From a virus, in the IMG/VR virus record IMGVR_UViG_3300006802_000073, positions 1 through 64,000 of that record: a stretch of 64,000 bases of DNA; one strand, given 5' to 3'. Positions 20,517 through 24,815 of this stretch are shown here, one piece after another. Numbering within the stretch: the first letter of the stretch is position 1; every line of letters begins with the position of its first letter. The notes under the pieces are model-generated. The model saw only the letters and a list, made by a program, of their open reading frames with translations, was not told where the DNA came from and made no database searches. A program made the translations under genes and the position numbers.

Positions 20517-20963
20517 ATGTATACAAAAGAAACATATAGAGGTAAATATAAGATTAAAAATCCACAGAAATATCGTGGTGATATAACCAATATTATTTAT
20601 AGAAGCTCGTGGGAACTTAAATTAATGAATTGGTGTGATAATACCAAAGCAGTTAGAGAATGGGGTTCAGAAATAGCTGTAATACCATATATATCTCCTG
20701 TTGATAATAAAGTTCATAGATATTTTGTAGATTTCTATATTAAGATAGAAGATAAACAAGGTAATATAAAAAAATATCTAATTGAAGTTAAGCCTAAAAA
20801 ATTTACAGAAGAACCAAAGAAACCACAAAGAATAACAAAAAAATTTATTGAAGAGGTTTATACTTATGGTATAAATCAAGCGAAATGGAAAGCAGCTGAA
20901 GATTTTTGTCATAAACGAGGGTATAAATTTTTAGTTCTAACAGAAAAGGAATTAAACGTATAA
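20517..20963 (+). CDS. gp4: head completion nuclease (TnsA-like)
   Basis: NPQKYRGD..IIYRSSWE, IPYISPVDNKVHRYFVDF, EVKP, NQAKWKAA. Confidence 0.9.
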   Translation: MYTKETYRGKYKIKNPQKYRGDITNIIYRSSWELKLMNWCDNTKAVREWGSEIAVIPYISPVDNKVHRYFVDFYIKIEDKQGNIKKYLIEVKPKKFTEEPKKPQRITKKFIEEVYTYGINQAKWKAAEDFCHKRGYKFLVLTEKELNV

Positions 20964-21535
20964 TGGAAAAAAATCCATTTGATGATTTAAGAATTAAGCC
21001 AGAACAAGTTGATAATTCAATTAAATGGTTTAGAACTCAGATAAATAATCTTTCAGCAGCAAGATCTCTATCTATACAAAGTTTAATGCGCCAGGAAGAT
21101 TATTTAACAAAAACTTTACGACCCGGAAGATTATATCTTTACTTTTATGATCCTAAATTCAAAGATTCTTTACCCTATTATGATACTGTTCCATTAGTAT
21201 ATCCATATAGAAAAACTTCCCAGGGTTTTATTGGATATAATTTACATTATCTTCCACCAGTAATACGGTTTAAATTGATGGGAGTATTGACGAATATTGA
21301 GATGTCCACAGATCTAGAGAAGAAAAAATTGGCTTATACATTTGGAGTTTTAAATTCAAATGAGATGAATAAATATTTTGCACCTTGTATAAAAAAGTAC
21401 TTGAGTTCGCATGTAAAGAGTAGATTTTTAGAGATTCCCTATGAAAGTTGGATGCATGCTGCTTTATTACCAACAGAAAGTTTCATGAAAGCATCTAAGA
21501 ATAAAGTTTGGAAAGATTCTTTAGGTAAAGTTTAA
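20963..21535 (+). CDS. gp2: DNA end protector protein
   Basis: YDPKFKDSLPYYD.VPLV, GYNLHYLPP, CIKKYL motifs. Confidence 0.9.
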   Translation: MEKNPFDDLRIKPEQVDNSIKWFRTQINNLSAARSLSIQSLMRQEDYLTKTLRPGRLYLYFYDPKFKDSLPYYDTVPLVYPYRKTSQGFIGYNLHYLPPVIRFKLMGVLTNIEMSTDLEKKKLAYTFGVLNSNEMNKYFAPCIKKYLSSHVKSRFLEIPYESWMHAALLPTESFMKASKNKVWKDSLGKV

Positions 21536-22225
21536 ATGGCTAATTTCACGATAGATAATTTCAGATCAGAAATACGTACTAGAGGTTTATCTCGTTCTAA
21601 TAGATTTGAGGTAATTTTACCATCTTTAAATATACCTGGATGGGATGATATTATCAAACTTTCATCTTTATTTTGTGAGAGTACAGCATTAGCACCTATT
21701 GCTGTTAGTACAAGACAAACTAAAATTCAAGGACCTATATATCAACGAGGAACAAGTGTAGAATATGGTGGTAATATACCTTTAACATTTTTTGTTGATA
21801 GAGATATGAATATTCGTGCATTATTTGAGATATGGTTATCATCTGTAATAAAGCCGGGCTCTTTTGAAGTTGGTTATTTTAATGATTATGCTAAACCTAT
21901 TGAACTAATTCAATTGGATGAACAGGAAGTTGGTGTTTATAAAATGACTCTAATAGATGCTTTTCCTGTAGCAATTGCACAACAAGAGATAAACAATTCA
22001 CTGCAGGGATTCCATAGGCTTACAGTAACATTTGCTTATAGATATTGGAATTCAAGTTATATCAATAATACTTATGGTGAAACACCGTCAATTTTAGGTC
22101 CTAGACAAAGTCTAGCAAGTTTTAAAGTAGAACAAGATCAACCAATGGAATTTAACCAACCCACCAACAGAACATTTGCTGAAACTCCCGCTGGTGCTGT
22201 AACTGGAGTAGCTAAATCAAAATAA
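21536..22225 (+). CDS. tail tube initiator / tail tube-like protein (gp54/gp19 family)
   Basis: RSNRFEV, LIDAFPVAI, LTVTFAYRYW motifs. Confidence 0.75.
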   Translation: MANFTIDNFRSEIRTRGLSRSNRFEVILPSLNIPGWDDIIKLSSLFCESTALAPIAVSTRQTKIQGPIYQRGTSVEYGGNIPLTFFVDRDMNIRALFEIWLSSVIKPGSFEVGYFNDYAKPIELIQLDEQEVGVYKMTLIDAFPVAIAQQEINNSLQGFHRLTVTFAYRYWNSSYINNTYGETPSILGPRQSLASFKVEQDQPMEFNQPTNRTFAETPAGAVTGVAKSK

Positions 22226-22249: not shown

Positions 22250-22945
22250 ATGTCATTACCGAAATTGGATGTTCCAACATTTGAATTAACATTACCTTCA
22301 ACGAGTAAAAAAGTATTATATAGACCATTTTTAGTCAAGGAGCATAAAACTTTACTTATTTTAAAAGACTCTGAGGATTCAGATTCCATAAGAATTATAA
22401 GTGAGATAGTAGATGTATGTACATTTAATAAGTTAAAAATTTCTGAATTGCCGAGTGTAGATTTAGAATACTTATTTCTTAATATACGAGCTAAATCTTT
22501 AGGTGAGATAGTGGAATTAATTATCAATTGCGACTGTGGTAATAAAATTGATTATGCGATGGATATTACGAAATTGAATATAGTAAAAGATAAGAATCAT
22601 ACCACTAAAATCTCAATTACCTCTGATATAGGTTTAGAGATGCGTTATCCTAAATTTGATGATACTATGAATATATTCATAACAAATGATCAGAGTAAAA
22701 TTTTTGATCTAATTATATCATGTGTAAAATCTATTTACACCAAAGAAGATTATTATGAAATTACACATGATAATAAAAAGGAATTAGAAGAATTTATATA
22801 TAGTATGACTAAAGAGCAATTTGAAAAAGTTGAAGAATTTTTTGAAACTATGCCAAAATTGAAACAAGAAATAGATGTTGTTTGTTCTAAATGTAATACA
22901 CACAACTATACTGTTTTGGAGGGTTTGCAAAATTTTTTCGTCTAA
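22250..22945 (+). CDS. gp26: baseplate hub assembly chaperone
   Basis: MSLPKL..P.FELTLPS..YRPFLVKE, DLEYLFLNIRAKSLGE, MRYP, FFETMPKL, LEGLQNFF. Confidence 0.85.
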   Translation: MSLPKLDVPTFELTLPSTSKKVLYRPFLVKEHKTLLILKDSEDSDSIRIISEIVDVCTFNKLKISELPSVDLEYLFLNIRAKSLGEIVELIINCDCGNKIDYAMDITKLNIVKDKNHTTKISITSDIGLEMRYPKFDDTMNIFITNDQSKIFDLIISCVKSIYTKEDYYEITHDNKKELEEFIYSMTKEQFEKVEEFFETMPKLKQEIDVVCSKCNTHNYTVLEGLQNFFV

Positions 22946-22968
22946 CTCTAGCGAACCACACGCTAGAG
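22933..22968 (+). promoter_or_regulatory. programmed -1 ribosomal frameshift signal
   Basis: Heptamer T TTT TTC (22933-22939) in the gp26 frame, 6-nt spacer, perfect 8-bp stem CTCTAGCG/CGCTAGAG with a 7-nt loop. Confidence 0.75.
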
Positions 22969-23121
22969 GAATACTATAAAACAAATTTTGGATTGATGCA
23001 ACATCATAAGTATAGTTTAAAAGAATTAGATAATATGATACCGTGGGAACGTGATATCTATGTTGCATTGCTTATTGCATATATACGTGAGGAAAATGAA
23101 AAGTTAAAATCCACTAAATAA
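22933..23121 (+). CDS. gp51: gp51-like hub assembly protein in the -1 frame of gp26; absent from the ORF track
   Basis: Manual translation ...LANHTLEEYYKTNFGLMQHHKYSLKELDNMIPWERDIYVALL...STK*; no start codon precedes the YYKTNF block. Confidence 0.8.
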   Translation, partial: FFRLTLANHTLEEYYKTNFGLMQHHKYSLKELDNMIPWERDIYVALLIAYIREENEKLKSTK

Positions 23122-23165
23122 GGAAGTATAATGTATCAGATTTTTATATTTCAAAAGATTAAGAA

Positions 23166-24815
23166 ATGAAAAAAGAAATTCCCGCACTTTTAAAACCTAA
23201 TTATGGTTTACCTAAAGGAAAAGGTACATTAGAACCTCTCTTTGATGATTCCGCTAAAAGTTTTAATACCGATAAAATTGGCGCTACATTATTGCCAAAA
23301 ACAAATATTAAAGTTGCTTCTAATGAACCTACATTTGGAACTTCTAATAAAATTGTTGGTGTGATGAAAGAAATTGGATTAGGTGTTTTAGATGCATTAA
23401 CAGGAAAAGTTTCTTTCAAATCTGGTGCTTTGCAAGATAAACAAAAGAAAGATTCTGAAACAAAAATAGAAGAAGGTAGAAAACTTATGTTTTCACCTTT
23501 AGAAACTTCTTTAAACTCTTTGTTACGTGTTTCTTCCGATTCTTTTTATTTACAACAAAAAACTAATAAGAGCTTTAAAAATATCGAAGATTATTTATAT
23601 AGAATAGAAGATTTACTCAAAGATTGTTGTATTAAGGATTATTGCTCGTGTAACGATTTTGACTTTAGAAGAACTCCTCGTGGTTCTCGCAGACAACAAC
23701 AAAGACAACAACAAAGACAACAACAAAGACAACAACAAAGACAACAACAAAGAATTCCTAATACAATTCCAGGAGTTTTACCAGGAGTTTTACCAGGAGT
23801 TTTACCAGGAGTTTTACCAGGAGTTTTACCAGGAGTTTTACCAGGAGTTTTACCAGGAGTTTTACCAGAAGTTACTACTCCACAAGTTCCAGAAATAGGA
23901 CCTTATCCTGAAACTATAACACCAAAAGTTACTACACCACAAGTTCCAGAAATAGGACCTTATCCTGAAACTATAACACCAAAAGTTACTACTCCTGAAG
24001 TTACTACTCAACAAGTTCCAGAAATAGGACTTTATCCTGAAACTATAACACCAAAAGTTACTACTCCTGAAGTTACTACTCCACAAGTTCCAGAAATAGG
24101 ACCTTATCCTGAAACTATAACACCAAAAGTTACTACTCCTGAAGTTCCAGAAATAGAAGATAAGCCATATTTTTCTGCCAAACCACGACAAAGAAAACCC
24201 AATCAACCAATTAGAGAAATTACAGAAAGAGAAAGAAATGTTCTAAATACAATAAAATATGGTTCTCTTATATTACCAGGTTTAGGAACAGTAGGAGCAA
24301 TGGGTAGAGGAGTTCTTGCAGCTGGTACTTTTGGTAAAGAGATGATAAAAAAAGGAATTACTTCTTTAACGAATCTTGTACCCAAAGCAGGTAGTGAAAA
24401 AATAATACCAAAATCTGCGGATATTTTTTCATTTCCAAAAAGAATACTCTCACCTGTAATTGCTGGAGGAACTGCAGCTGGTGCTACAATATTACCTTTT
24501 GCGGCTGCAGCTCAAGATCAAATACAACCACAAACAAATATAGAAAAATCTATATATGAAATGACTAACAATGCAACCGAAAGATTTTATGCGGGTAAAC
24601 CTGGAGTAGATATACCTAGTTTAAGTACTGAACTAAATAATGCCTCAATAGATAATACTGATCTATTAAGATCATTACAATCATCTACAACAGTACAACC
24701 AATTATTAATAATAACAATATGACCAATAATACACAAAGTATTATTCCTATAAAAGCACAAGTTAGAACAGAGTCATCATTTTCAAAATATATAGATAAA
24801 ATCTCATCATATTAG
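23166..24815 (+). CDS. repeat-rich tail protein in the gp29 (hub/tape-measure) position
   Basis: Follows gp26/gp51; C-terminal INNNNMTNNT low-complexity tail; internal tandem repeats. Confidence 0.5.
   Translation: MKKEIPALLKPNYGLPKGKGTLEPLFDDSAKSFNTDKIGATLLPKTNIKVASNEPTFGTSNKIVGVMKEIGLGVLDALTGKVSFKSGALQDKQKKDSETKIEEGRKLMFSPLETSLNSLLRVSSDSFYLQQKTNKSFKNIEDYLYRIEDLLKDCCIKDYCSCNDFDFRRTPRGSRRQQQRQQQRQQQRQQQRQQQRIPNTIPGVLPGVLPGVLPGVLPGVLPGVLPGVLPGVLPEVTTPQVPEIGPYPETITPKVTTPQVPEIGPYPETITPKVTTPEVTTQQVPEIGLYPETITPKVTTPEVTTPQVPEIGPYPETITPKVTTPEVPEIEDKPYFSAKPRQRKPNQPIREITERERNVLNTIKYGSLILPGLGTVGAMGRGVLAAGTFGKEMIKKGITSLTNLVPKAGSEKIIPKSADIFSFPKRILSPVIAGGTAAGATILPFAAAAQDQIQPQTNIEKSIYEMTNNATERFYAGKPGVDIPSLSTELNNASIDNTDLLRSLQSSTTVQPIINNNNMTNNTQSIIPIKAQVRTESSFSKYIDKISSY
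23691..23750 (+). repeat. 12-bp tandem repeat AGACAACAACAA x5 (RQQQ)
   Basis: Read directly from the sequence. Confidence 0.95.
23769..23864 (+). repeat. 12-bp tandem repeat CCAGGAGTTTTA x8 (PGVL)
   Basis: Read directly from the sequence; perfect copies. Confidence 0.95.
23865..24154 (+). repeat. composite repeat of QVPEIG(P/L)YPETITPK x4 interspersed with VTTP units
   Basis: Near-identical DNA copies, all in frame. Confidence 0.9.

Follow-up and report, generated by a model that had tools for sequence, protein, structure and literature searches.

The gp26 homologue in the window, which is the whole stretch of 64,000 nucleotides of viral DNA that was analysed, is very probably a tail assembly chaperone (TAC) gene with a programmed -1 ribosomal frameshift, yielding a short form of 231 aa and a long form of 290 aa. 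The basis for this reading consists of the signal at the 3' end of the gene, its conservation in relatives, the coding constraint on the -1 frame from the slippery heptamer onwards, the homology to gp26 and gp51 of phage T4, and a TAC-like fold of the short form. The elements of the gene are the following.

22250-22945, + strand: gp26 homologue, the predicted short form of the tail assembly chaperone (TAC-N), 231 aa
22918-22923, + strand: Shine-Dalgarno-like (SD-like) box GGAGGG, 9 nt 5' of the heptamer
22933-22939, + strand: slippery heptamer T_TTT_TTC in the gp26 frame, phase X_XXY_YYZ, one codon before the stop
22939-23121, + strand: -1 frame extension of 60 codons and a stop, the putative C-terminal part of the long form (TAC-NC); base 22939 would be read twice
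22943-22945, + strand: TAA, the 0-frame stop of the short form, within the spacer between heptamer and hairpin
22946-22968, + strand: hairpin with an 8-bp stem (62% G+C) and a 7-nt loop, 6 nt after the heptamer

The last codons of the gp26 homologue read GGT TTG CAA AAT TTT TTC GTC TAA, while an open stretch of the -1 frame extends from 22897 up to its stop at 23119-23121. The initial annotation had described this 3' end with its in-phase T_TTT_TTC, and the sequence at 22933-22939 bears it out. It had also described the -1 frame as open across the whole gp51-like sequence without a start codon before the conserved YYKTNF block, which agrees with the finding that no ATG, GTG or TTG occurs in the -1 frame between 22897 and 22992, the first start codons being TTG 22993 and ATG 22996, both 3' of that block. 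The junction peptide that it had predicted is correct and reads GLQNFF-RLTLANHTLEEYYK, with 230 + 60 = 290 aa for the predicted long form.

The peptide encoded in the -1 frame matches phrog_634 (the 'gp51' family) with 9e-27, as well as positions 236-276 of the 282 positions of phrog_150, that is, the C-terminal part of this profile, with 1.5e-5. In BLASTP, its residues 12-45 align with residues 212-244 of T4 gp51 (E 3e-4). Similarity to the relatives begins at residue 1 of the -1 peptide (tblastn), and the positional entropy of the first 54 nt after the heptamer in the related loci, counted in the -1 frame, is 0.50/0.41/0.94. Over the 18 codons that precede the first ATG, third-position variation is seen in the -1 frame only; several loci have a -1 frame stop directly 5' of the heptamer, and a premature -1 stop was found in none of the 79 metagenome loci. 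From these comparisons, the extension is conserved as protein from the slip site onward while having no start of its own.

This pattern bears on the reading in which gp26 and the gp51-like peptide are two separate proteins, the latter being made by re-initiation or from TTG 22993 or ATG 22996. GenBank records are in keeping with it, as they annotate a small 'gp51' ORF or nothing at all, and none of the ten GenBank/RefSeq records inspected contains a joined CDS. It is also favoured by the ATG that overlaps or adjoins the gp26 stop in phages S-PM2, phiM7, Marzo, KVP40 and K361; in the first four of these, an ATG or GTG stands a few codons away from the slip site at most, and separate initiation is therefore possible in those phages. 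However, the 18 start-less codons after the heptamer are conserved as -1 protein in the window and in about 240 loci, ATG 22996 has no usable SD (just GGA, 3 nt upstream), and separate expression leaves the invariant in-phase T6, the constant -1 phase and the single-frame T4 gp51 unexplained. Two separate proteins are thus considered very unlikely here, and the frameshift is retained as the preferred explanation.

The conservation of the slip site was followed in 241 related metagenomic loci that include the gp26 3' end. An in-phase T_TTT_TTN is present at the gp26 3' end in 241/241 of them (83/83, 79/79 marine and 79/79 metagenome), at a distance of 0-2 codons from the gp26 stop, and in every case it is the -1 frame that encodes the gp51-like peptide. 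In all of 80 IMG/VR loci with gp26 49-70% identical, T_TTT_TTY precedes the stop by one or two codons. The metagenome scan returned 80 loci, solely from a clade that is 47-56% identical, and TTTTTTC stands in 79/79 of those that include the gp26 3' end; the closest relatives (P0002-P0012, 63-73% identical) lie outside the DNA comparison.

The six T's are invariant in the 55 distinct sequences of the 83 related loci, whereas nearby synonymous sites vary, with four codons in use for a Gly and six for a Leu. The Asn codon that enters the heptamer is AAT in 53 and AGT in 4 sequences and never AAC (0/57), while an Asn nine codons upstream is encoded by AAC in 11/57. In the marine clade, whose loci were gathered with a 44%-identical representative (L091-L170, related to P0142), the heptamers of 79 loci are T_TTT_TTA (49), TTC (23), TTG (5) and TTT (2); the last residue is Phe in some loci and Leu in others, yet the T6 run is retained, so that it is the nucleotides on which selection acts. 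In line with this, T4 gp26, with no -1 ORF after it, codes the same FF as TTC TTT. The FF motif is a conserved protein feature too, and accounts for part of the T-richness in a genome of 32% G+C. As a separate observation, the seventh base in the marine loci L091-L170 tracks the first -1 codon (AGR/CGN for Arg, AGY for Ser, GGN for Gly).

Among ten cultured T4-like phages, site and phase are found in eight, namely S-PM2, Sinorhizobium phage phiM7, Stenotrophomonas phage Marzo, Aeromonas phage Ah1, S-CAM4, S-PRM1, KVP40 and HTVC008M, the two exceptions being T4 and Vibrio phage K361. Most loci have a run of T6, whereas phiM7 and locus L079 have T7 and HTVC008M has T8. In K361 (L086, OZ196085.1, 3040-3270), gp26 ends in TCA CTT TTC AAG TAA TG with no X_XXY_YYZ heptamer, and the homologous -1 ORF starts at an ATG that overlaps the gp26 stop (TAATG). 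In this lineage, the C-terminal piece may be expressed separately, or the shift may take place by another route.

The composition of the genome also invites the view that a functionless TTTTTTC with a hairpin came to lie near a stop by chance, as the window has 31.7% G+C, TTT makes up 84% of the Phe codons in this genome, and in-phase T_TTT_TTN occurs 16 times in the 19,058 codons of the window. Of 69 long ORFs, gp26 alone has an in-phase T6 heptamer within 3 codons of its stop. Window statistics of this kind are weak evidence by themselves, and it is the conservation across relatives that marks the signal as more than chance: the site, its phase and the -1 ORF are kept across lineages in which gp26 is 25-40% identical, including Marzo and phiM7 with their higher G+C, so that a chance origin is barely credible.

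Downstream of the heptamer, the hairpin consists of the stem arms CTCTAGCG (22946-22953) and CGCTAGAG (22961-22968) around the loop AACCACA (22954-22960). The perfect 8-bp stem, 6 nt after the heptamer, had been noted from the sequence at the outset and is upheld by folding, the minimum free energy being -12.5 kcal/mol against -2.6 +/- 1.8 in 200 shuffles (z = -5.4, 0/200 as good); compared with all 45-nt windows in 16 kb around it, the hairpin belongs to the best 1.7%. In the closest relative examined, L004, the stem is identical and the loop different. Scans of the region found no T-tract after the hairpin, no terminator-like site and no Rfam family.

The initial annotation had suggested that conservation of T_TTT_TTY plus hairpin be checked across T4-like genomes; in the loci and isolates compared, the heptamer held as T_TTT_TTN, while the hairpin was mostly absent. 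Non-homologous hairpins lie 1-9 nt downstream of the heptamer in L079/L237, L249, S-PM2 and S-PRM1, with registers that differ between lineages, and the large freshwater clade has no hairpin within 45 nt downstream of the heptamer. When each relative is ranked against its own background for downstream structure, the median locus comes out at the 72nd percentile, showing no more structure than the background, and just 5 of 60 distinct sequences reach the best 5%. A conserved hairpin as part of the signal was rejected on these grounds, since registers vary by lineage and most loci have none. The hairpin of the window is therefore regarded as a lineage-specific addition outside the conserved core, in which a conserved stimulator is missing, and it is likely to be the downstream stimulator in this lineage.

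Upstream, the SD-like GGAGGG may be a stimulator in the style of E. coli dnaX, with which the window shares the succession of an SD-like element (9 nt from the heptamer here), a heptamer and a hairpin (6 nt from it here). The box coincides with Glu-Gly codons (GAR GGN) that are kept across relatives, and AGA GGC is found at the same place in T4 gp26, though T4 gp26 has no downstream -1 ORF; any role of GGAGGG is consequently inseparable from the protein constraint. The two systems differ further in that the shifted product of dnaX is the shorter one, and in that the hairpin of the window is missing in most of its relatives.

The same gp26-gp51 fusion could be made by transcriptional slippage, in which the polymerase adds an extra U on the T6 run and a minority of mRNAs carries the joined frame. 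In accord with this, the conserved element is a homopolymer run (T6-T8), the seventh base is free to vary, and downstream structure is absent in most relatives. Runs that give efficient slippage in bacteria are usually 9 or more bases long, and no codon phase is needed. The T6 found here falls below a run of about 9 or more and is short for efficient polymerase slippage, while the phase X_XXY_YYZ is kept in all 241 loci and in 8/8 heptamer-bearing isolates, though the FF motif fixes the phase too. Strong hairpins at 1-9 nt in several lineages moreover have the geometry of ribosomal stimulators, and sites of T4-like phages are described as -1 frameshift slippery sequences in the literature (PMC12846349). 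Transcriptional slippage, which may occur at a low level on T6, is thus unlikely to be the source of the long form, and a slip of the ribosome is preferred.

The identity of the two parts had been given in the initial annotation as gp26 and gp51, and the profile matches hold with it. The gp26 homologue matches Pfam PF12322 (T4_baseplate) over residues 9-230 with 9.4e-58 and 195.9 bits against a gathering cut-off of 24.5, as well as phrog_150 over profile positions 5-232 (4.7e-63), and the -1 peptide falls into phrog_634 as described above. The PF12322 scores of T4 gp26 and T4 gp51 are 215.6 and 186.4 bits, respectively.

An AlphaFold2 model of the short form was built with 132 representatives of 32-54% identity and reached a pLDDT of 93.4. 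In an exhaustive VIA-align comparison with 48,161 PDB chains, residues 1-90 of the model matched 3fgx_B (Z 7.2, 85 aa, 4.0 A), the HK97 tail assembly chaperone 2ob9_B (Z 7.2, 84 aa, 4.0 A), YqbN 3klu_A (Z 6.9) and 5ir0_B (Z 5.5), followed by the next structural match at Z 4.5, the top Z values being moderate. Foldseek with the same model listed these entries weakly (E > 1) and nothing significant, and a PDB sequence search with gp26 gave no match. Residues 1-90 of the model thus have a TAC-like fold, resembling the HK97 and YqbN chaperones. Two Cys pairs, at residues 94/96 (CxC) and 212/215 (CxxC), are adjacent in the C-terminal half of the model, and C57, C212 and C215 are invariant or nearly so in 132 gp26 homologues. 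In the model, the Cys pairs look like a zinc-ribbon-like addition that is absent from small siphovirus TACs.

In phage T4, both gp26 and gp51 carry PF12322. T4 gp51 (249 aa) matches it over residues 1-201 (7.7e-55) and covers phrog_150 positions 13-280, while T4 gp26 (208 aa) covers positions 14-235; together with the BLASTP alignment, this coverage indicates that T4 gp51 is a gp26-like domain joined to a C-terminal extension in one frame, the extension being homologous to the -1 peptide of the window. The architecture of T4 gp51 is the one that a -1 shift is predicted to create here. Unlike in the window, genes 26 and 51 of T4 are separate and on opposite strands, gene 25 follows gene 26, and T4 gp26 has no heptamer, the sequence there being GAG TTC TTT with the conserved FF coded TTC TTT. 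A review of the T4 tail counts both proteins among the hub assembly chaperones and states that the particle contains no gp51 (PMC3004832). The relation proposed here offers an explanation of T4 gp26 and gp51 as paralogous 'hub assembly chaperones'.

The gene lies in a T4-like morphogenesis cluster with the following neighbours, and the late-promoter consensus TATAAATA was not found on the + strand within this cluster.

20517-20963, + strand: gp4-like head completion gene
20963-21535, + strand: gp2-like DNA end protector gene
21536-22225, + strand: gp54/gp19-like gene for a tube-like protein of 229 aa, immediately 5' of gp26, matching phrog_45 ('tail tube', 1.8e-26) and phrog_3629
23166-24815, + strand: repeat-rich gene of 549 aa at the gp29 (tape measure) position, assigned by position only

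Genes like gp54/gp19 hold the same position in KVP40, HTVC008M, Ah1 and phiM7. The 549-aa gene has no Pfam, PHROG or Atlas match; its last ~60 aa alone are conserved in relatives and the remainder is variable, while the gene at this position in HTVC008M is annotated as a putative tape measure. The order of tube-like gene, gp26/gp51 and gp29-position gene had been read from the sequence at the outset, of which the order itself and the tube (through phrog_45) stand, while the tape measure is given by position only. Three in-frame tandem arrays occur within the gene at 23691-24146, of 12 nt x 5.2 (QQQR), 12 nt x 8.8 (GVLP) and 72 nt x 3.1 (Pro/Thr/Val-rich). If 23166-24815 is the tape measure gene, gain or loss of repeats could alter the length of the tail.

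Between the -1 frame stop and this gene, the interval 23122-23169 holds a 12-codon mini-ORF from ATG 23131 to TGA 23167-23169 with a good SD (AAGGAAG) upstream. Its stop overlaps ATG 23166 of the 549-aa gene (ATGA), which is without a clear SD of its own, and the mini-ORF may serve as a leader that couples translation to this gene at the tape measure position.

The initial annotation had proposed that gp26 and a gp26-51 fusion of ~290 aa are the equivalents of lambda G and GT, and the conserved T6 with its -1 phase, T4 gp51 and the TAC fold support this proposal. Conserved -1 frameshifting in tail assembly chaperone genes reportedly goes back to Levin in 1993 for lambda G/GT and to Xu, Hendrix and Duda in 2004. 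Another such pair is E/E+E' of phage P2. Like the window, lambda G/GT has short and long forms with a common N-terminus, a -1 slip at X_XXY_YYZ near the end of the short ORF, a location between a tube-type gene and a long gene at the tape measure position, and a TAC fold. It differs in showing no detectable sequence similarity and in its heptamer, which is G_GGA_AAG against U_UUU_UUC here, while gp26 of the window is larger (231 aa), has the extra Cys-pair (zinc-ribbon-like) domain and belongs to a baseplate-hub cluster.

For the course of the shift, we infer that the slip is ribosomal; how efficient it is, what the hairpin and the SD-like box contribute, and which partners are bound are put forward in the same conditional sense. 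Most ribosomes would read gp26 to its stop and release the 231-aa TAC-N. A minority would pause with tRNA-Phe on UUU in the P site and on UUC in the A site of U_UUU_UUC, and both tRNA-Phe would move back by one nucleotide, where UUU UUU gives them perfect pairing again. Reading would then go on in the -1 frame from CGU for 60 codons, giving a minor TAC-NC of 290 aa whose extension is the 'gp51' of the databases. In this lineage, the rate of slipping is probably set by the 8-bp hairpin at its 6-nt spacing, and GGAGGG may help. If the roles are as in lambda G/GT, the protein made from the next gene, at the gp29 position, would be coated by the short form, the rare long form would connect the resulting complex with tube or hub proteins, and both forms would be absent from the virion. 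T4 has the same pair in two genes, the short form in 26 and the long form, in one frame, in 51.

The frameshift between gp26 and gp51 appears to have been published already for T4-like phages. As relayed in the PRFect paper (PMC10885494), some T4-like phages in the work of Vladimirov et al. (2022) have, in place of a frameshift, one short gene and another gene that is long and fused. The phage Adele paper (PMC12846349) cites the same work for the names TAC-N and TAC-NC and for -1 slippery sequences of the poly-T type that T4-like phages have in their TAC-N genes. Judged from these citing papers, its T4-like TACs belong to the same gp26/gp51 family as the window and have the same poly-T site at the 3' end of TAC-N; the explanation given here is therefore already in the literature, apparently since 2022 as far as the citing papers convey it. 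The window is thus an ordinary member, one more uncultured freshwater T4-like phage, of a published class.

With this class, the T4 superfamily falls under the rule for long-tailed phages that a short and a long tail chaperone are made from one N-terminus. The literature search turned up no experiment that demonstrates the long product for a T4-like phage, and experimental proof of the fusion is, together with its annotation in databases, what apparently is still missing. A further suggestion, which we regard as doubtful, is that the U_UUU_UUN slip is ancestral in the T4 superfamily, the two-gene solution of T4 being derived and the ratio of short to long form being tuned by lineage-specific stimulators; its novelty would depend on its not being described already by Vladimirov et al. 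(2022).

The annotation of many genomes is also concerned. The mini-ORF labelled 'baseplate hub assembly catalyst gp51', or the gap left after gp26, is most likely the C-terminus of the long form in hundreds of T4-like genomes. In the RefSeq records of S-CAM4 (L087), S-PRM1 (L088) and Ah1 (L085), the gp51-like -1 ORF is unannotated, and the 'baseplate hub' CDS is followed by a gap of ~170 nt.
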